64,000 nucleotides of DNA, from the NCBI GenBank assembly GCA_036383995.1, contig DASVNG010000029.1, positions 2,351 through 66,350 of the forward strand, in the 5' to 3' direction. This DNA comes from Pseudoxanthomonas sp. GTDB taxonomy: Bacteria > Pseudomonadota > Gammaproteobacteria > Xanthomonadales > Xanthomonadaceae. This document shows, in pieces, positions 331 to 11,809 of the stretch (positions are counted from its first letter, which is position 1; every line of letters starts with the position of its first letter). Both the position numbers and the translations under genes were made by a program. The notes below the pieces were generated by a model. That model saw only the letters and a list, made by a program, of their open reading frames with translations, was not told the origin of the DNA and made no database searches.

Positions 331-3300
331 ATGCCGACTCCGCTGCGCCGTCGTTTGCGGCTGGCGCGTCGTGGCGTGTGGTACGTCGCGGCCGGGGTGC
401 TGGTGTGCATGGCGCTGGTGCTGGGCGTGGCCAGTCAGGTGCTGCCGTTGGCCGAAAGCCATCCGCAGCAGATCCAAGACTGGTTGAGCGCGCGAGCCGG
501 TAGGCCGGTGGCGTTCGATCACGTGACTACCGAATGGACGCGCCGCGGCCCCTTGTTGCGGCTGGACGGGTTGCGGTTGGGCGAAGGCGACTCTGTGGTG
601 CGCATCGGCGAAGCGGAGGTGCTGGTGTCGATGTACGCGGGCCTGCTGCCGGGGCGTTCCTTCACCGAGCTGCGCCTGCGCGGATTGTCGCTGACCCTGC
701 AGCGCGCCAACGACGGTACCTGGTCGGTACTCGGATTGCCGGGACAGAAAACCGTCGGCGATCCATTGAAGAATCTAGAAGGACTGGGCGAGTTGCAAGT
801 GATCGACGGCAAGCTGTCGGTGCTGGCGCCGACGCTGGGCTGGAACGTGCAGGTACCGAAGATTGATCTGCGTTTGCGCGTGGATGGCGACCGCGTGCGC
901 GCCGGCACCCGCGTGTGGATACGCAAGGAGGGCGCGCCGGTGCAGGTCGCGTTCGACTTCGATCGCAGCAGCGGCGATGGCCGCGCTTACCTGGATGCGC
1001 AGGCGGTGGACATGGCGGGGTGGACTTCCTTGCTGCGCTATGCCGGCGTTACCGCCGACTCCGGCGTGGGGCGCGTGCAGGGTTGGGTTGAATTGCGCAA
1101 GCGGCGTGTGGTCCTGGCCACTTCGGAATTGAAGTTGCGGCAGGTGGGCCTGCGCGGCGCTGCTCTGGCGGACGGCGGCAGCGTGCCGCGCGTGCATTTC
1201 GACCGGGCGGAAGGCCGGGTGCGCTGGCGCCTCACACGCAATGGCTGGCGCTTCGACGCGCCGCAACTATTGGTGGGCGACCAGCAGGCGCCGCAAAGGC
1301 TCGACGGGCTGGTGCTCGCGGGCGGTCAGGAATACGCCTTGCTGGCCAACCAGATCGATGCCGCTCCCCTGTTCTCGTTGATGGGGTTGAGCGACCGTGT
1401 CGATCCTGGCCTGCGCCGATGGCTGTCTCAGGCCAAACCCGGCGCCCGTCTGGCCGGTGTGGCCCTGACCGGAAGCCGCGCGGTGGGCATGCGCGCGCAG
1501 GGGCGGCTGGAAGGCATCAGTTTCCTAACGGTGGGCCATTCGCCCGGCCTCAACGGGCTGGCGGGCGAATTCGTCGGCGACGAGCAGGGCTTCGTATTGA
1601 AGCTGGACCCCAAGACCGCTTTCCGCTTCGACTGGCCTACCGGCTTCGGCGTAGTCCATGAAGTGAAACTGGAGGGTTCCCTGGCGGGGTGGCGCGAAGG
1701 CGCGGGCTGGCGGGTGGGTACTTCGGCGTTGCGGATTCGGGGCAAGGATTTCGGCGCCCAGGCGCGAGGCGGATTGTGGTTCCAGGGCGACGGCACGCGG
1801 CCGTGGATCGACATCGCCGCCGATATCGACGAAACGCCGGTATTGGCCGCGAAGGGATTCTGGATACACGACAAGATGTCCAAGGCCACGGTGGATTGGC
1901 TCAATCGCGCGCTGGTCGGCGGCAAGGTGCGCAACGGGCGCGCGATCGTCTCCGGCGATCTGGACGACTGGCCGTTCACCCGCAACAACGGACGCTTCGA
2001 AGCGGTGGCGCGGATCGAAGGCGGGCAGTTCAAGTTCCAGCCCGATTGGCCGGCGATGGATCAGGTGAGCGCGGACATCGCATTCATCGGCAACGGCTTC
2101 TCCATCGAAGGCCAGGGCGCGTTGGCGGGCGTGCGCATAGACCAGTTCAAGGCCGGCATTCCCGAGTTCTCCAAAGCGGAGTTGTCGGTCGGCGCGCGCG
2201 GCGGTTCCGACGCGGCGCAGATGCTGGCGATGTTGCGGCAGTCGCCGCTGCAGAAGAAGTACGGCGACACCCTGACCAGCCTGACCGCCAGCGGTCCCGC
2301 GCGCGCCAGCTACGAGATGCTGCTGCCCTTGCATGCGCAGAGCACGGCGGCAAAGAAAACCCGTGGCACGGTCGAATTGTCCGGCGCGCACCTGGCCGAC
2401 AAGCGTTGGAACCTGGCCTTCGAGAATGTGCGCGGCACCGCCGATTTCGATGACGACGGTTTCGCTGCCGAGAAGCTCGCGGTCAGCCAGAAAGCGCAAT
2501 CGGGCGCTGTCCAGCCCGGCCAGCTTTCCCTGCGCGCCGGCAGTGGCGTGCGCGACAAGCAGCATGCTTTCGAGGCCGAGCTGTCTGCGAACCTGTCTGC
2601 ATCGGAACTCCTGGACCGCGTGCCCGAGATCGCCTGGCTAAAGCCTTACGTGGAAGGGCGTTCGCAATGGACGGTCGGGGTGACCATGCCGCAAGGCGGG
2701 GCAGCCGGCATGCCCAGCAGACTGAACCTGCGTTCGGACCTGGTGGGCACCACGCTCAAGCTGCCCGCGCCGCTGGACAAGCCGGCCTTGCTGGCGCTGC
2801 CGACCACCGTGCAGACCTCGATGCCGATGGGTGCCGGCAATATCGATGTCGCTTTCGGAAAGCTGCTGGCCTTGCGCGCGCGGGGCAGCGGCCGGCAGAG
2901 CGGCGTGCGCGTGGTCCTGGGCAGCAACACGGTGACCGATGCGGCGCCTGCCTCGGGCCTGGTCGCCAGCGGCCGAACGGCTTCCCTGGATGCGATCGAG
3001 TGGATCGCCCTCGCCAAGAGCGGTAGTGGCGATGGCAGCAGTCTGCCCCTGCGCCGCATAGACGTCACCGCCGATCGTTTGCTGCTGTTGGGCTCGGCGT
3101 TCCCGGACACGCGTCTGCAAGTCGTACCTTCCGGCAATGCGCTGGCGGTATCGCTGACGGGTCCGGCGCTGGCCGGCTCGGTGCAGGTGCCCGACGCGAA
3201 GGGCGCGACGATCACGGGCAAGTTCGCACGTCTGTATTGGCGCTCGGCATCGCCAGGCAAGCCCGGCGCCGTCGATGCCGCTGCCGCCGACGTCAGCGAT

Positions 3301-4381: not shown

Positions 4382-5827
4382 ATGACCAATTCCTCCCTGG
4401 CCTTAGCCGAAACCCGCCTCCTTCTCCCCGCCGGCCTCGACCAGCAAGGCCTGCATCGCGCCTTCGGCACCCTGCTCGGTCCCGGCATCGATTTCGGCGA
4501 CCTGTATTTCCAGCATTCCCGGCGCGAGAGCTGGACGGTGGAAGACGGCATCGTCAAGGACGGCGCGCATTCCATCGACCAGGGCGTGGGCGTGCGCGCG
4601 ATCTCCGGCGAGAAGACCGGCTTCGCTTATTCCGACGACATCAATCCGCAGGCGCTGCTGAGCGCGGCCGGTTCGGCGCGCGCCATCGCCCGCGACGGCA
4701 GTTCGCATGCGCCGCATGCGCTGGTGCGCGGCGGCGGCCGTGCGTTGTACTCCAGCGACGATCCCATCGATGCGCTGGACAACGACGCCAAAGTGGAAAC
4801 CCTGCGCGTGGTCGACAAGCTGCTGCGCGCGGCCGATCCGCGCGTGCAGCAGGTGACCGTGAGTCTGGCCGGCGGCGTGGACACGGTGCTGGTGGCGCGC
4901 AGCGACGGCGTGCTGGCCGCCGACGTGCGTCCGCTGGTGCGCATGAACATACAGGTGATCGTCGAACAGAATGGTCGCCGTGAATCGGGCTACGCCGGTT
5001 TCGGCGGACGCTACTCGTATGCGGAATTGTTCGGTGGCGGCAAGCCGGAACAGTTCGCTCGCGAAGCCTTGCGCCAGGCGCTGGTGAATCTGGAAGCGGT
5101 GGACGCGCCGGCCGGGATGATGCCGGTGGTGTTGGGTTCGGGCTGGCCGGGCGTGTTGTTGCACGAGGCCGTGGGCCACGGTTTGGAGGGCGACTTCAAC
5201 CGTAAGGGCACGTCGACTTATGCGGGCCGCATGGGCCAGCGCGTCGCTTCGCCGGGCGTGACCATCGTCGACGACGGCACGCTACCGGGGCGCCGCGGTT
5301 CGTTGAACGTCGACGACGAAGGCACTCAGACCAATTGCACCACCTTGATCGAGGACGGCGTGCTGGTGGGCTACATGCAGGACACGCTCAACGCGCGGCT
5401 GATGGGCGTTGCGCCCACCGGCAACGGCCGCCGCGAATCCTTCGCCCACCTGCCGATGCCGCGCATGACCAATACCTACATGCTGGCCGGCCAGCACGAT
5501 CCGCAGGAGATGATCCGTTCGGTCAAGAAAGGTTTGTACGCGGTGAACTTCGGCGGCGGTCAGGTCGACATCACCAGCGGCAAGTACGTGTTCTCGGCCA
5601 CCGAGGCCTACCTGATCGAGGACGGCAAGATCACCGCACCGGTGAAGGGCGCCACGCTGATCGGCAATGGTCCTGAGACCATGCAGAAGGTGAAGATGAT
5701 CGGCCACGATCTGGCGCTGGACGCCGGCGTGGGCGTGTGCGGCAAGGACGGGCAGAGCGTGCCGGTGGGCGTGGGGCAGCCTTCGTTGCTGATCGAGGGC
5801 ATTACCGTGGGTGGGACGCGGGCTTGA
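4382..5827 (+). CDS. tldD: Metalloprotease TldD
   Basis: 481 aa with the [12 protein letters not shown] zinc-protease motif; ATG start. yhdP-tldD synteny matches E. coli. Confidence 0.95.
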
Positions 5828-6530: not shown

Positions 6531-7910
6531 TTGTTACAGGATAAGCCATTGAACGCAATCGCCGATTTTTCCGCCGATGACAGCCTGACCCGACTGGACG
6601 CGCTGGAGAGCTTGTCGGCGCGCCTGCTGGACCGCGCCCGCGCCGCCGGCGCCAGCCAGGCCGAGGTCAGCTGCAGCGAAGACCGTGGCCTCAACGTCAA
6701 CGTGCGCATGGGCGCGGTGGAAACCGTGGAATCCACCCGCGACCGCAGCATCGGCGTCACCGTGTACTTCGGCCAGCGCAAGGGCAGCGCCAGCACCGCC
6801 GACCTGCGCGAAGAGAGCCTGGACGCCACGGTGGCGCAAGCCTGCGCCATCGCCCGCTACACAGAGCACGACGAAGCCGCCGGCCTGGCCGACGCGGCGC
6901 TGATGGCCACCGACTTCCCGGACCTGGACGCCTGGCATCCCTGGGCGCTGGAGGCCGATCACGCCATCGACCTGGCCCTGGCCTGCGAATCTGCGGGGCG
7001 CGGGTTCGATTCCCGTATCGCCAATTCGGACGGAACCTCGGTCGGCAGCGGCGAAAGTGTTTCCGTCTATGCCAATTCGCACGGATTCTTCGGCCGCGAC
7101 CGCAGCACCCAGCATTCCATCGGCTGCGCGCTGATCGCCGGACAAGGCGAAGACATGCAGCGCGACGGCTGGTACAGCAGCGCGCTGTCGCGCGACGGAT
7201 TGGAAGCGCCCGTTGCGATAGGCCGCCATGCGGCCGAGCGCACGCTGGCGCGCCTGTCGCCGCGATCGGTGGCCACCGGCCAGTATCCGGTGCTGTTCGC
7301 GGCCGAAGTCGCGCGCTCGCTGATCGGGCACTTGCTGGGCGCGGTTTCCGGCGGGGCCCTGTACCGGCGCGCCAGTTTCCTGCTGGACCATGCCGGCAAA
7401 CGGATATTCCCGGACTGGTTCGCCATCGAAGAGTTGCCGCTGCTGCGCGGCGGGCTGCGCTCGGCGGCCTTCGATGCCGAAGGCGTGGCGACCCGTCAGG
7501 CGCCGCTGGTGAGCGGGGGCGTATTGCAGCGCTATGTGCTGGGAAGCTATTCGGCCCGCAAGCTGGGCCTGCGGACCACGGCCAATGCGGGAGGCGTGCA
7601 TAACCTCAAGGTCGCCGCCAATGCGGGCGGTTTCGAGGAAATGGTGGGCGGCCTGTCCAACGGGCTGCTGGTCACCGAACTGATGGGGCAGGGTGTGAAC
7701 CCGGTCACGGGCGATTACTCGCGCGGTGCGGCCGGGTTCTGGGTGGAGAACGGCGCCATCGCCTATCCGGTGGATGGCATCACCATCGCCGGCAACTTGA
7801 AGGACGTATTCGCCGGTATCGAAGCGGTGGGCTGCGATGTGGACCCGCGGTCCCATATCAGCTGCGGTTCGGTCCTAGTGGGCAGGATGACCGTCGCGGG
7901 CGGGGATTAA
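6531..7910 (+). CDS. pmbA: Metalloprotease PmbA (TldE)
   Basis: 459 aa, colinear with E. coli PmbA ([25 protein letters not shown]). The start is uncertain: no ATG is available, so TTG at 6531 or TTG at 6549. Confidence 0.9.
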
Positions 7911-8005
7911 CGTTTTTCTGGACATGAGGTGTCGTGCGGCTGTAGTGTCGCCACGGTTAGCCTGCCGCACCACCCACACCCACCATTCCTAAAGGGAAGA
8001 AAGAA

Positions 8006-8383
8006 ATGAGTGAATTCGATAACGTGACCGCCCCACCGCCGGCGCCCTCGGGCGAGGCACCGCAGGAAGACAGGACCATCGGGTTGCTTACGCACCTGTC
8101 CGGCATCATCGCCGGTTTCATCGTTCCGCTGATCATCTGGCTGATCAACAAGGACAAGCCGGAAAAATCCTGGCTGACCGACCAGTCCAAGGAAGCGCTC
8201 AATTTCCAGATCACGCTGCTGATCGTGTACGTGATCGGCATCATCCTTTCGGTGATCCTGATCGGCGCGCTGATCAACCTGATCGCCTGGATCGCCTGCA
8301 TCGTCTTCAGCATCATCGCCGGTCTGGCCGCCAACAAGGGCGAAGCCTACCGTTACCCGTTCGCGCTGCGTCTGATCAAGTAA
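8006..8383 (+). CDS. DUF4870-like small inner-membrane protein
   Basis: 125 aa; ATG preceded by agggaaga. Two or three TM helices (LSGIIAGFIVPLIIWLI, ITLLIVYVIGIILSVILIGALINLIAWIACIVFSII) with the KS.L.DQSKEALNFQIT motif typical of DUF4870. Confidence 0.7.
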   Translation: MSEFDNVTAPPPAPSGEAPQEDRTIGLLTHLSGIIAGFIVPLIIWLINKDKPEKSWLTDQSKEALNFQITLLIVYVIGIILSVILIGALINLIAWIACIVFSIIAGLAANKGEAYRYPFALRLIK

Positions 8384-8403
8384 TCCGGAAATACCGTTTC
8401 CGC

Positions 8404-8437
8404 ACGAAGGCCCGGCTAGTCCGGGCCTTCGTCGTTT
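8404..8437 (+). terminator. Stem-loop terminator after the DUF4870 gene
   Basis: Perfect 12-bp stem acgaaggcccgg / ccgggccttcgt with a 5-nt loop, followed by cgttt. The U-tract is short, so it may be weak. Confidence 0.55.
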
Positions 8438-8473
8438 GCGGGGCCCGTATTCACGTTACTTTGCGGCCAGCTC

Positions 8474-9424
8474 TCAGGATCCAGCCTCAGGCTTGCCTGT
8501 TAGGAGGCTCATTTTGTGCAGTGCATCAAGCATCTCGGGAGGTATTGAGTTGTCCTTAGGCCACCCGCGGTGAGAGAAAATCAATTGCCGATCCTTGTAA
8601 AAATAGAATGTTGGTACGCGGGAGAAGTCAATTCCCGGCCATTTTGAGTTGTCGTACGCAATAGCTATCTTTTGCCGAGGAAATTGCCGATTCCAGCTTC
8701 TGATTTCCACAAGGTCAAGCTCTTTGCTTGCCGCGGCAAGCCAAATTGCATTTCCCCTTATAAAAGCATCTCTAACCAGCACATTGCTATCAATAGACTT
8801 CGCCGCCTTATCAGAGGTTCGGCAGCCAGAAACTACAATGATTCTGTAGCGCGCATCCATAGCTATGTTCTGCAATGAAAGCTCGTCCTCGTTAGTAGAC
8901 AGAAAAAGCGCAGCAGGGCCGTCAGCGGCCAACTGAGAATCGGAGCTCAGACGAGGAACTACAAGACGACCGTCCACGAATTCGTTAGCTCGTAGCGCAC
9001 GCGCTTGTTCCCATTGCCTGGATGCTATAAGAGACTTGAGAATATCGAGCGTTTCACCGTGCCGCTCTACCCCCCTTCGCCTAAGTTCCGCGTAGGTAAC
9101 TTGCATCGAAGAAAGGTAAAGCTGCGTATCTTTATCACCATAAGTCAGAACGTAGTTGTAGACCAATTCTGCCGCACTGAAGATCGCCCTAAGGTCGTTG
9201 GTTTCAACTGTGCCTGGGTTTTGTATCGACGAGGATGTTTGTGAAAAAACATCCTTCAATCTCTGGAGTTTTGTCTCGTTGCTATCTTCCCTTGCTTTAC
9301 TGATGTCTATTAGCTCGGCAAGAGCCAGTTGAATTTGAGAGAGATCTGAAGCGAATCCATTGTTCGATATGGAGCAAAACATGACAAGCAGAAAGAAGAT
9401 CGGTATCCGAGTTCGCGCGCGCAT
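8474..9424 (-). CDS. Secreted hypothetical protein with C-terminal thioredoxin-fold-like domain (CxxS variant); low-GC islet gene
   Basis: 316 aa from ATG 9424 (GTG 9433 alternative). Signal peptide MRARTRIPIFFLLVMFCSISNNGFA. YRIIVVSGCRTSDKAAKSI (beta1 then C-R-T-S) and RVPTFYFYKDRQLIFSHRGW (cis-Pro loop plus strand) fit a thioredoxin fold. A long ORF in ~42% GC DNA is unlikely to arise by chance. Confidence 0.65.
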   Translation of the reverse strand: MRARTRIPIFFLLVMFCSISNNGFASDLSQIQLALAELIDISKAREDSNETKLQRLKDVFSQTSSSIQNPGTVETNDLRAIFSAAELVYNYVLTYGDKDTQLYLSSMQVTYAELRRRGVERHGETLDILKSLIASRQWEQARALRANEFVDGRLVVPRLSSDSQLAADGPAALFLSTNEDELSLQNIAMDARYRIIVVSGCRTSDKAAKSIDSNVLVRDAFIRGNAIWLAAASKELDLVEIRSWNRQFPRQKIAIAYDNSKWPGIDFSRVPTFYFYKDRQLIFSHRGWPKDNSIPPEMLDALHKMSLLTGKPEAGS

Positions 9425-9456
9425 AGTAGCCACAACTTGGTAAGAATTGAGTGGAA

Positions 9457-9486
9457 CCCACTTAAGTAGTCTTGCACTTAAGTGGG
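9457..9486. promoter_or_regulatory. Perfect 11-bp inverted repeat between the two islet genes
   Basis: cccacttaagt - agtcttgc - acttaagtggg. Each half contains CTTAAG. Located 29 nt downstream of the 183-aa gene stop and 33 nt upstream of the 316-aa gene ATG. Confidence 0.5.
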
Positions 9487-9514
9487 GCCACTAGCAATTG
9501 ACAGCTATGATTCG

Positions 9515-10066
9515 TTACTTGCACTTCGCATTACAAGTGCTCCCGTACTCGTAAGTGCACCAGCTATCCTGCCCGTCCACCGTGCAATAGGCGTTCTGAA
9601 CAGGTGGCTCTTCCGTAGTGTTTTCTCCCCCGCCCCCCATTGCTGACATGAAAAGAATGGACTTCTCAGTCGGGTTCTTGGCTTTGAGTCCGGGTATTGA
9701 GGTCAAGTAACGCTGTTGCCCAAATAGGGAAAAAATCGCATATAGGTCGGTCGTGCTTGCTGAATCAAGACCAAGATATGAATAGGAAGCGAGGCCGTGG
9801 CGCGTAAATACCAGGCTCTTCAAGAACTTGTCTCGTAGTTTCGGCGGTAGCTTGTTAAGTGGTGAATCTGGTGTGGTGCGTAGGTAGCGCTCCAGATCCG
9901 ATTTCGATTTTATCGGGGCAGTCGCTTGATCGATTTCGATCTGGGTGGCATTCATTTCGCGAACTAGATCGATCCCGCTGCCCTTCTGAATGCTGGCGTC
10001 TTGAGCGTGGACCGCATGGCTGGCAACGCAGAGCGCCAATGCAAAAGCTGAGAAGATAATTTTCAT
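9515..10066 (-). CDS. Secreted hypothetical protein with Gly-linker and 4-Cys C-terminal tail; low-GC islet gene
   Basis: 183 aa from ATG 10066, with an AAGGA Shine-Dalgarno 5-9 nt upstream. Signal peptide MKIIFSAFALALCVASHAVHA. C-terminus is ...MGGGGENTTEEPPVQNAYCTVDGQDSWCTYEYGSTCNAKCK. Confidence 0.65.
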   Translation of the reverse strand: MKIIFSAFALALCVASHAVHAQDASIQKGSGIDLVREMNATQIEIDQATAPIKSKSDLERYLRTTPDSPLNKLPPKLRDKFLKSLVFTRHGLASYSYLGLDSASTTDLYAIFSLFGQQRYLTSIPGLKAKNPTEKSILFMSAMGGGGENTTEEPPVQNAYCTVDGQDSWCTYEYGSTCNAKCK

Positions 10067-10124
10067 ATTTTTCCTTTTCTGATTTCTTCCAAGAGTTAGA
10101 TCATCCAACCTGAAAGCGCCTTAG

Positions 10125-10364
10125 CTAGACTTCATTGTCTGTGATGCTGTGCTCTTCAGTATTCCCCGCACTCGCTATATACGGAAATGTTCCAGGTTTC
10201 TGATGTCTGGAAAATATTCTGTGCAGAGCCAGTTTGCGAAGAACTGAGCCAAGGTAGCAGCAATGGTCTGATTCGGATCGACGTGAGTATGGGATTCCGA
10301 CTTGGAAAGCTCGAACGTACTCAGTGCTACTTGTCTTTGTGAGCTTTAATGTTTTCGAAGGCAC
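10125..10364 (-). CDS. Doubtful small ORF (79 aa, GTG start) in low-GC islet
   Basis: Open frame only, with no recognisable motif. Overlaps the next ORF by 19 nt in another frame, so the two may be halves of one frameshifted gene. Confidence 0.25.
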   Translation of the reverse strand: MPSKTLKLTKTSSTEYVRAFQVGIPYSRRSESDHCCYLGSVLRKLALHRIFSRHQKPGTFPYIASAGNTEEHSITDNEV

Positions 10365-10609
10365 ACTAGTCTTTGAAAGCGAGGGGTTAATTCTGTTCTA
10401 CCATCACTCATGGAGAATGTGTCTTGGTAGCTCGCTTCAAGCGATTTCACTCTATTCATGAGTGGGTATTCGCGAATGGTTTCGAGGCCGAGTGCAAGAG
10501 ACAATACGGGGAAGCAAGACTTTGTTCCTGATCCGTAAGGCCACATTAAGACAATGATGAATCGTCGTGTAAATGACGTCGGGATCTCATGCAATGCAAT
10601 CTGCAGCAT
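10346..10609 (-). CDS. Doubtful small ORF (87 aa from ATG 10609) in low-GC islet
   Basis: The track ORF 10346..10720 extends into the ispA 3' end; the internal ATG at 10609 avoids that overlap. No motif recognised. Confidence 0.25.
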   Translation of the reverse strand: MLQIALHEIPTSFTRRFIIVLMWPYGSGTKSCFPVLSLALGLETIREYPLMNRVKSLEASYQDTFSMSDGRTELTPRFQRLVCLRKH

Positions 10610-10680
10610 AGTCCCTGTTCGGAACAGTCTCGGTAGCTCTCGCCTTGGTGCCGCGTCCGATGCTCTAGGGCGAAAGTCTT

Positions 10681-11559
10681 CTAGTGCGTGCGGTGGATCG
10701 CCAATTTGCCCAGCGCCCACAGCGCGGTGGCGTGTTCGCGGAAAGGGGCCAGCGCGTCGTGCATGACCCTGTCCAGCTCGACCAGCTTGGCTTTCGCGCC
10801 GTCCATGCCCAGCAAGGCGGGATAGGTCGACTTGGCCTGCGCCGCGTCCTTGCCGATGGTCTTGCCCAACCGCTCCGAGCTCGATTCCACATCCAGGATG
10901 TCGTCGCGCACCTGGAAGGCCAGGCCCAGCGCGTCGGCGAAGGTATCCAGCAGCTTGAGCGTGCCTTCATCGATGCTGCCGCCCATCGCCCCCATGCGCA
11001 CCGAGGCCCGGATCAGCGCGCCGGTCTTGAGGCGGTGCATGCGCTCCAGATCGGCGAGCGTCTGCACCTGGCCGGTGGCGTCGATATCCAATGCCTGGCC
11101 GCCGCACATGCCGCCGGCGCCAGCGGCTACGCTCAGGGCGCGTAGCCAAGACACGCGTAGCTCGGAGGCGACCGGCGCTTCGGCCAGTATTTCGAAAGCC
11201 AGCGACTGCAGCGCGTCGCCGGCCAGGATCGCGGTGGCTTCGTCGAAGGCGACGTGCACGGTAGGCCGGCCACGGCGCAAGGCGTCGTCGTCCATTGCCG
11301 GCAGATCGTCGTGCACCAGCGAATAGGCGTGGATCAGTTCCACCGCCGCCGCAGGCGCGTCCAGCCAGCGCTCGTCGGTGCCGAACACCGCGCCCGTGGC
11401 GTAGACCAGCAGGGGGCGTATGCGCTTGCCGCCGCCCAGCACGGCGTGGCGCATGGCCGCATGCAGGCGTTGCGGAGGAATCGAGGCCGAAGGCAGGGCA
11501 TGACCAAGGGCGGTTTCGACGCGTTGGGCCCAGCGCAGGAACGGGGCTTCAGTTTCCAT
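10681..11559 (-). CDS. ispA: Farnesyl diphosphate synthase (geranyltranstransferase)
   Basis: Aspartate-rich motifs [12 protein letters not shown] and [12 protein letters not shown] at 11559 (METEAPF...) is preferred over TTG at 11574. xseB-ispA synteny matches E. coli. Confidence 0.92.
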
Positions 11560-11809
11560 CAGGCAACGGCGCAAAGGGTTCGGCCGCGTCGGGCTGTTCC
11601 GGATCGCTGAGCAGGCGCACGCGCAACTCGGCCTGTTCCAATGCGGCCTGGCAGCGCCGGTACAGGCCCACGCCGCGCTCGTAGGCGGCCAGAGACTCTT
11701 CCAGGCTCATCTCGCCCTGTTCCATCTTCTCGACCAACAGTTCCAGTTCGTCCAGCGACTGCTCGAAATGGGCGACGGGGGAAGCATCGGGGGCGGGTTT
11801 GCGTGGCAT
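11549..11809 (-). CDS. xseB: Exodeoxyribonuclease VII small subunit
   Basis: 86 aa from ATG 11809, found inside track ORF 11549..12220. Sequence [47 protein letters not shown] is typical of XseB. Confidence 0.9.

Follow-up and report, generated by a model that had tools for sequence, protein, structure and literature searches.

What do two adjacent genes for exported proteins, one ending in a cysteine-rich tail (A) and the other resembling a thioredoxin with a lone cysteine (B), do together in the cell envelope of a Pseudoxanthomonas species? Both genes lie on the minus strand of the stretch of 64,000 nucleotides that was analyzed (the window). An earlier note on this DNA had described the two genes, the sequence of the tail, and the C-R-T-S and VPTFYFY motifs of B, all of which were recovered from the open reading frames and by reading the DNA. 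Comparison of homologues indicated that A and B are a real functional unit, which handles thiols in the cell envelope. In the reading that we prefer, and to which we would assign a probability of roughly 45%, the N-terminal domain of A docks on B and presents its tethered hairpin to the Cys of B, which would isomerize, proof-read or hold it. The two genes and their parts, in window coordinates, are:

9515-10066, minus strand: gene A, 183 residues, ATG start with a good ribosome-binding site (AAGGA) about 7 nt upstream; exported Cys-hairpin protein
10004-10066, minus strand: signal peptide of A, residues 1-21, cut after VHA, assigned by inspection
9638-10003, minus strand: N-terminal domain of A (A-N), residues 22-143, from alignments, hidden Markov model (HMM) matches in fusion proteins, and a predicted local distance difference test score (pLDDT) of 93-98
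9602-9637, minus strand: linker of A, residues 144-155, GGGGENTTEEPP, with the lowest pLDDT of mature A (69 for the block 141-150)
9518-9601, minus strand: predicted four-Cys beta-hairpin of A, residues 156-183, with C161, C170, C178, and C182
8474-9424, minus strand: gene B, 316 residues, ATG start; putative exported monothiol thioredoxin-like protein
9350-9424, minus strand: signal peptide of B, residues 1-25, cut after GFA, assigned by inspection
8873-9349, minus strand: N-terminal domain of B, residues ~26-184, presumed helical, with sub-threshold matches resembling pentatricopeptide and tetratricopeptide repeats (PPR/TPR)
8477-8872, minus strand: thioredoxin-like domain of B, residues ~185-316, assigned by sequence profiles
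8813-8824, minus strand: active site of B, C201-R-T-S, read from the DNA
8597-8617, minus strand: cis-Pro strand of B, V270-P-T-F-Y-F-Y, with P271 invariant and F273 at least 90% conserved

The coupling of the two genes extended to distant relatives, with an A-like gene directly upstream of B homologues even at 26-29% identity. Among 301 genomes of the order Xanthomonadales, the A domain was found in 39 and B in 56, and 37 of the 39 A-bearing genomes also encoded B. The 43 A hits comprised 17 separate pairs in which A preceded B (gaps of 8-433 nt), 19 cases in one open frame with B downstream, three with B upstream, and four without B nearby; adjacency or fusion to B was thus observed for 39 of the 43. 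That fusions occur in both domain orders strongly supports a physical cooperation of A-N with B. The proposal that the two genes form a paired functional unit and co-occur in other genomes was borne out by these data.

The fusions also identified the part of A that accompanies B. Their layout consisted of a signal peptide, the A core, and a full-length B, with no Cys tail; HMM matches in A-B and B-A fusions delimited this core to approximately residues 50-118. Fourteen long representatives matched the B profile (389-636 residues), of which 13 were fusions of A-N and B (389-449 residues) and one, P0031 (636 residues), carried two B units in tandem (B-B), each with a monothiol site. In the linker of two of the 13 fusions there was a C-x4-C or C-x5-C element, and three of the 13 had a CxxC site; in B-then-A fusions, CxxC occurred together with one Cys on either side of the A core. 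A separate gene for a Cys tail was not found near loci with a fusion or with B only. Since about half of the A-domain hits were tail-less fusions, the constant partner of B is, on this comparative evidence, A-N and not the tail. Of the earlier suggestion of a dedicated isomerase paired with a Cys-rich substrate, the unit therefore stands, and A-N takes the place of the Cys-rich tail as the constant partner.

Three further arrangements were encountered. At L030 (2042-2899, genome G073), two A N-domains occurred in tandem, and no B was detected in that 87%-complete genome. In the congener G026, a B-family gene with a CGFS site (L016, 1012-2325) was apparently fused to an N-terminal lipoprotein domain of ~170 residues, with the lipobox LAGC and a C-x7-C pair; a near-identical relative, L017, had an ordinary signal peptide. 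In another congener, G025 (L014, ~1504-2600, minus strand), B was intact and the same frame upstream held just an A-like Cys tail (...PSQPCDHDRYACGKQGTCAAAFNKICTRNC), with the profile match reading through one TGA, which suggests that this A is decayed or frame-shifted.

The assignment of B to the thioredoxin fold was based on profiles and motifs. By inspection, B has a typical Sec signal peptide (MRARTRIPIFFLLVMFCSISNNGFA|SD), and neither A nor B has a lipobox; neither signal peptide was taken to be that of a lipoprotein, the residue before the Cys being L or F. An alternative GTG start at 9433 would yield a protein of 319 residues. A profile search that covered 1.84 billion representatives placed 1387 clusters at 50% identity in the B family (E-values up to 1e-3), 456 of them with E-values up to 1e-30. 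In 135 aligned representatives, the Cys201 column was at least 90% conserved and Pro271 was invariant, with the family consensus IVVV.HPLCHFS ... WLAP ... WN..HP ... W.TPTFYF..DG.LV..V.GWP. The active-site column read CxxS in 67, CxxT in 30, CxxA in 21, and CxxC in 15 of these proteins, so that CxxS/T/A together accounted for 118 of the 135. In B of the window, in which the mature protein contains a single Cys, Cys201 directly follows a hydrophobic stretch (IIVVSGC201RTS), as does the CxxC-type motif of the thioredoxin fold, and the cis-Pro lies ~70 residues downstream, followed by a strand and a hairpin.

In a PDB profile search, the B family matched thioredoxin h at the cis-Pro/beta-hairpin region (E = 0.001), with 'w.TPTFYF..DG.lV..v.GW' aligned to 'ATPTFFFLRDGQQVDKLVG' and the VPTFYFY region to ATPTFFFL. 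The Pfam family Thioredoxin_2 (PF13098) matched eight of the 135 members at E-values up to 0.01 (best E = 1.2e-5), and in CxxC-bearing members the match began at the active site, ended at the cis-Pro strand, and covered positions 8-94 of the 104 in the profile. Upon rescanning, ten CxxC members scored at most 20.9 bits against PF13098, for which the cut-off is 27, and all thus remained below the gathering score. Pfam and NCBIfam scans of B of the window gave no match, curated thioredoxin models included, and NCBIfam holds no model for the B family. Taken together, the profiles and motifs assign B to a divergent thioredoxin-fold family that is mostly monothiol, in agreement with the earlier description of B as monothiol and thioredoxin-like. 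A glutathione-peroxidase-like reading, prompted by CxxT together with the conserved 'WN', was rejected, as this WN lies ~27 residues upstream of the cis-Pro strand and not where the peroxidases have their WNF motif. R136 and A141 were conserved in the presumably helical N-terminal domain of B, and an hhalign comparison of the A and B families showed no homology between A and this domain.

For A, a typical Sec signal peptide was likewise recognized by inspection (MKIIFSAFALALCVASHAVHA|QD). Profile searches retrieved 148 homologues, all labelled hypothetical, mostly from Xanthomonadales-type genera (Dyella, Luteimonas, Arenimonas, Stenotrophomonas, Xanthomonas, Luteibacter, Rudaea) and in a few cases from Burkholderiales, Zooshikella, and alphaproteobacteria. 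No family model of Pfam or NCBIfam was matched by A or by representatives of its family. Across 112 aligned homologues, the motifs of the N-domain (APIKS..DL.RYL, F..SLVF...GLASYSY, and Y.IFSLFGQQ) and the four tail Cys were at least 90% conserved, so that the tail conservation on which the earlier reading depended was observed. Conservation of this degree, like that of Cys201 and Pro271 in B, is not a matter of chance. The family consensus of the tail, located at the very C-terminus, was D(H/Y)xxYxC-x5-C-x7-C-x3-C-COOH; 57 of the 112 homologues had four tail Cys and 38 had six. A of the window ends in ...MGGGGENTTEEPPVQNAYCTVDGQDSWCTYEYGSTCNAKCK and has the spacing C161-x8-C170-x7-C178-x3-C182-K183, that is, the four Cys previously noted with a spacing of C-x8-C-x7-C-x3-C in place of the reported C-x9-C-x8-C-x3-C. 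The x8 form and the G4 linker were specific to the clade of the window, and elsewhere the linker varied in length and composition; the G4 run, which had been singled out as a feature, is therefore not a family-wide trait. Among close homologues (73-78% identical overall), the tail was the most conserved segment of A and nearly invariant, with loops that were conserved and not diversified.

An AlphaFold2 (AF2) model of A that was built on the 112-sequence alignment had a pLDDT of 88.4 and a predicted template modelling score (pTM) of 0.78; this run was used in place of one with a three-sequence alignment, which gave a pLDDT of 48. The model showed a helical domain that includes a small beta-hairpin (86-96), an ill-defined linker, and a long C-terminal beta-hairpin with strands 156-164 and 167-178 at a pLDDT of ~97; the helix of the signal peptide had a low pLDDT. 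C161 was modelled opposite C170, which suggests consecutive disulfides. Four residues, Y97, Y109, Q118, and D134, were 88-94% conserved in tail-bearing A proteins and unconserved or absent in tail-less fusions; conservation confined to proteins with a tail is expected if these residues form a surface on which the hairpin packs. The tail thus looks, in the model, like part of the fold of A and not like a released peptide, at variance with the free, knotted peptide envisaged before. No solved structure, bacteriocin and toxin folds included, matched the model, a search of the PDB with a profile of just the 27-residue tail returned nothing (best E = 1.7), and neither the Cys framework nor the fold of cysteine-stabilized alpha-beta defensins or knottins was found in the tail. 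The likeness to bacteriocins or toxins that had been proposed was accordingly not recovered, and the A family is one without a Pfam or NCBIfam model and without a match among solved structures.

These results bear on the possibility that a secreted antimicrobial or toxin-like peptide, rich in disulfides, is made from A as its precursor, in which a pro-domain and a linker would precede the mature peptide at the C-terminus, and that B is either the dedicated maturation isomerase of this precursor or an immunity protein of the producer acting via a mixed disulfide. A signal peptide, a conserved pro-like domain, a variable linker, and a Cys-rich C-terminus do recall precursors of antimicrobial peptides, and pediocin and sublancin are known to have dedicated thioredoxin-like helpers (PedC and BdbB, respectively). 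We nevertheless consider such a precursor improbable. The A family has no conserved cleavage motif, the tail was modelled within one compact fold, its loops are not diversified, peptide toxins were among the solved structures that neither the model nor the tail profile matched, and A-N persists in fusion with B where no tail exists. Furthermore, A and B would stop in the periplasm unless a further export system took them on. A also differs from double-glycine bacteriocins and from ribosomally synthesized and post-translationally modified peptides, in which a conserved GG/GA motif marks the cut between leader and core, in that its G4 run is limited to one clade, in that it has a Sec signal instead, and in that no gene for a C39 peptidase/ATP-binding cassette (ABC) exporter or for a modifying enzyme was found in the islet or at L001, L031, L033, or L034.

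The four tail Cys, which form two short-spaced pairs at the chain end and are preceded in many members by Asp-His/Tyr (DHxxYxC), could alternatively bind a metal (Zn, Cu, or Fe), with B keeping them reduced or loading the metal. We regard this as very unlikely indeed. The His is absent from the clade of the window, the spacings (x5-8, x7, x3) are unlike those of known zinc knuckles, and the periplasm is oxidizing; a lone-Cys protein without a partner cannot supply reducing equivalents, and no linked CcdA/DsbD-like gene was found at L001, L031, L033, or L034. No metal-related neighbours were found either.

In the docking reading, A and B would both be exported by Sec and would constitute two parts of one periplasmic thiol-disulfide module. 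B would keep the nucleophilic first Cys of a CxxC site (C201-R-T-S) alone and could thus attack a disulfide or form a mixed disulfide, but could not resolve that bond itself. A would be a compact protein in which a helical N-domain is joined by a variable linker to a C-terminal beta-hairpin that is stapled by four Cys and packs back on the N-domain. Docking of A-N on B would bring the tethered hairpin within reach of Cys201, and B would then shuffle or check the disulfides of the hairpin, as its client, or retain it in a mixed disulfide. The chemistry that we infer would be of the monothiol isomerase or retention type seen in CxxS protein disulfide isomerases. In protein disulfide isomerase (PDI), the first Cys of CGHC suffices for isomerase activity, and ERp44 (CRFS) retains clients through mixed disulfides. 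Like B (CRTS), ERp44 and yeast Eug1p combine a thioredoxin fold with a first Cys that stands alone and isomerize or hold clients; they are, however, proteins of the eukaryotic endoplasmic reticulum and Golgi with a-b-b' domain sets, and share no homology with B beyond the fold, so that the likeness is one of working only.

Several observations weigh against the hairpin as the client of B. In the order, 20 B hits occurred without any A, and in seven of the 13 fusion representatives the active-site Cys was the sole Cys of the mature protein. Lone-Cys fusions and A-less B proteins imply that B can fulfil its core function without the hairpin, which could be an add-on with another role. Each of the 12 B partners of a tailed A was monothiol, and those inspected had only one Cys in their mature form, but 12 monothiol proteins of 12 are not significant against an 11% background of CxxC (P ~0.25). 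Consecutive disulfides such as the model suggests could be made by the general DsbA machinery without an isomerase, and the residue differences between split and fused forms of A may reflect phylogeny and not contact.

The same observations point to a different role, the main rival of the docking reading, in which A and B are a two-subunit or fused periplasmic redox chaperone for other envelope proteins. The lone Cys of B would form transient mixed disulfides with clients or reduce a sulfenylated single Cys, in the manner of DsbG or CnoX; A-N would be a client-binding or oligomerization subunit, and in some lineages the hairpin would be no more than an accessory for regulation or resolution. 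This role is possible, if on balance unlikely, for the pair in the window, and for the core of the family the lone-Cys fusions and A-less B genes favour it. Tail-less fusions are common, are vertically inherited, and sit among housekeeping genes. The C-x4-C or C-x5-C element of fusions L020, L021, L024, P0038, and P0086 could act as resolving thiols, as could the two lone Cys that flank A-N in L049 and L050, and the weak PPR/TPR-like matches of the N-terminal domain of B are of the repeat type that CnoX joins to a thioredoxin domain. On the other hand, these matches are sub-threshold and no client is known. Moreover, wherever A is a separate gene its tail is strictly conserved under purifying selection, beyond what would be expected of an optional accessory, and, in its tail-bearing form, the unit is mobile as a self-contained cassette of two genes.

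Comparison with known thiol-disulfide systems placed the pair as follows. Like DsbC and DsbG, B is periplasmic, has an extra N-terminal domain before the thioredoxin domain, and is proposed to shuffle disulfides or guard Cys; some B members scored best against Thioredoxin_2, the DsbC/DsbG-type domain, all below threshold. DsbC and DsbG have a CxxC site recycled by DsbD and a dimerization domain, whereas B has CRTS with a single Cys. With ~87% of B representatives being monothiol, the usual recycling by DsbD would not apply, and the N-terminal domain of B showed no similarity to the dimerization domain of DsbC and no match to models of the DsbC N-terminal family. B furthermore has an obligate-looking partner domain, A-N, and DsbC and DsbG have none. 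The chaperedoxin CnoX (YbbN) resembles B in joining a thioredoxin-like domain to a helical repeat domain and in forming mixed disulfides with clients, but is cytoplasmic and has the reverse domain order.

Dedicated helpers include MauD (methylamine dehydrogenase light chain), PedC (pediocin PA-1), and BdbB (sublancin), and in these systems, as in A-B, a gene for a thioredoxin-fold protein adjoins the gene of one Cys-rich exported client. The helpers known to us are CxxC enzymes, and MauD, PedC, and BdbB belong to larger operons with processing, export or cofactor genes, in contrast to the two genes and monothiol site of A-B. Client and helper also occur fused in A-B, unlike in these systems, and no homology was detected. 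A-B is accordingly of a kind already known, a dedicated thioredoxin-like partner of a Cys-rich exported protein, built from two families that have no Pfam or NCBIfam model. It differs in that the large B family has mostly lost the resolving Cys, in a partner domain with neither a Pfam or NCBIfam model nor a solved-structure match and for which the searches made here found no paper, and in three evolutionary states of B: alone, fused to A-N in either order, or split with a Cys-hairpin client. A literature search for a periplasmic monothiol thioredoxin of this kind, or for XVIPCD together with thioredoxin, retrieved no description. The pair is a small natural system in which one can ask what a thioredoxin fold with one Cys is able to do in an oxidizing compartment (isomerize, hold, or guard Cys), and a working hypothesis for two 'hypothetical protein' families present in ~13-19% of the genomes of an order that includes plant-associated and opportunistic genera.

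The history of the locus was reconstructed from its flanks. The features concerned are:

8443-10682, no strand: low-GC islet of 2.24 kb, inserted between the DUF4870 terminator and the ispA stop codon
8404-8432: terminator hairpin, perfect 12-bp and GC-rich, ACGAAGGCCCGG / CCGGGCCTTCGT, 3' of the DUF4870 gene
10109-10682, no strand: part of the islet upstream of A, ~570 nt of low-GC DNA with no recognizable gene
9457-9486, minus strand: hairpin in the A-B spacer, perfect 11-bp inverted repeat, CCCACTTAAGT / ACTTAAGTGGG, forming an RNA hairpin on the transcript

The GC content of the islet was 0.42-0.55 in 200-nt windows, compared with ~0.66 in the flanks. In the closest congeners (G010, G035, and others), the pmbA-DUF4870 block (6969-8442) and ispA (10683-11575) abut with a gap of 10-110 nt, and at this empty site just the shared terminator hairpin separates the convergent DUF4870 gene and ispA; the insertion point of the islet is directly beside that hairpin. 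The insertion was absent from the site in all congener loci compared (n = 11). Because the flanks directly abut in congeners, 8443-10682 is DNA acquired by this genome: a 2.24-kb acquisition specific to this Pseudoxanthomonas, so that the two-gene islet is horizontally acquired. No target-site duplication was seen at its edges and no mobility gene was found within it.

Low GC content and accessory surroundings recurred in other split pairs. The nearest homologous pairs were on the metagenome contigs L001 and L005 (A 73-78% and B ~56% identical), and that of L001 also formed a low-GC islet within DNA of higher GC. Split, tail-bearing pairs had a lower GC content than their flanks at seven of eight loci, and lay in accessory DNA at those whose neighbours were read (L001, L031, L033, and L034). 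Fusions, in contrast to the split pairs, matched the GC content of the host and sat alone between housekeeping genes, either accA and an NYN-LOTUS gene (in three genera) or hisS and trpR-hisG. We propose that the tail-bearing pair may be a mobile derivative of an older fused, tail-less, and vertically inherited module. Both families are rare outside the order: among 401 genomes across the phylum, searched at E-values up to 1e-5, one B match and no A match lay beyond the window's own family. A tblastn search of 72,556 plasmids with A-like and B proteins gave no match. On both sides, the L001 islet was flanked by fragments that, by eye, resembled REP-associated tyrosine transposases (4430-5030 and 6826-7446); these may bear on the movement of the cassette.

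The neighbourhoods return to the precursor of a secreted peptide. Within a few kb of the A-B pair, genes for XVIPCD type IV secretion effectors were found in two independent records, L001 (2169-3872 and 7468-8814) and L031 (369-4577; Xanthomonas campestris pv. phormiicola, CP102593). Further neighbours at these two loci were Imm11, HicAB, SymE fragments, and a GH19-like peptidoglycan-binding protein. The pair of Zooshikella (L034) lay beside IS66, an Rce1/Abi-like gene, and a P2-type tail cluster, and nothing notable was found near that of L033. Such surroundings, together with a mobile, low-GC cassette, speak for an antimicrobial peptide. In the islet and at L001, L031, L033, and L034, however, genes for a protease, for a C39/ABC exporter, or for any other secretion or immunity function were not found, and a plasmid copy is lacking among the plasmids searched. 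It is mobility and toxin-island neighbourhoods, and nothing else, that keep the peptide precursor alive as an improbable reading. For the maturation system or immunity pair that the earlier note had suggested, no specific evidence was obtained, and either could apply to the mobile, tail-bearing versions. The link of A-B to the X-Tfe/X-Tfi system consists solely of the neighbourhoods at L001 and L031. X-Tfe effectors have a C-terminal XVIPCD domain and no Sec signal, and their cognate immunity proteins are periplasmic lipoproteins, whereas A and B have no PF20410 and both have Sec signals without a lipobox.

A bolder interpretation, and in our judgement a quite remote one, is that A-B represents an undescribed, order-specific thiol system of the envelope and that the tail cassettes are a weaponized derivative, in which the disulfide-stapled hairpin would serve Xanthomonadales-like bacteria as an antibacterial or signalling effector of a new, Sec-dependent class. 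A-N, as an adaptor with a new fold, would recruit the lone-Cys thioredoxin, and B would mature or neutralize the hairpin. This would explain why cassettes land beside effector/immunity islands for interbacterial killing, and an exported effector hairpin would, if real, be a new peptide scaffold.

Upstream of A, the stretch 10109-10682 contained only two short, overlapping open reading frames (10125-10364 and 10346-10720). Neither the 124-residue frame nor the stretch as a whole had a Pfam match, and these ~570 nt were not shared with the homologous pairs of L001 and L005; they may be a decayed remnant of the carrier DNA of the cassette. A consensus scan of the islet revealed no convincing promoter, and a terminator scan was likewise uninformative. 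Within the 90-nt spacer between A and B, the hairpin was kept at the same place in L001 and L005/L006 with both arms changed, and other, unrelated strong hairpins occurred in the A-B spacers of L007, L011, and L018. The spacer hairpin may be an intra-operon attenuator or stabilizer that favours A over B; for a peptide precursor, it could set a high A:B expression ratio.

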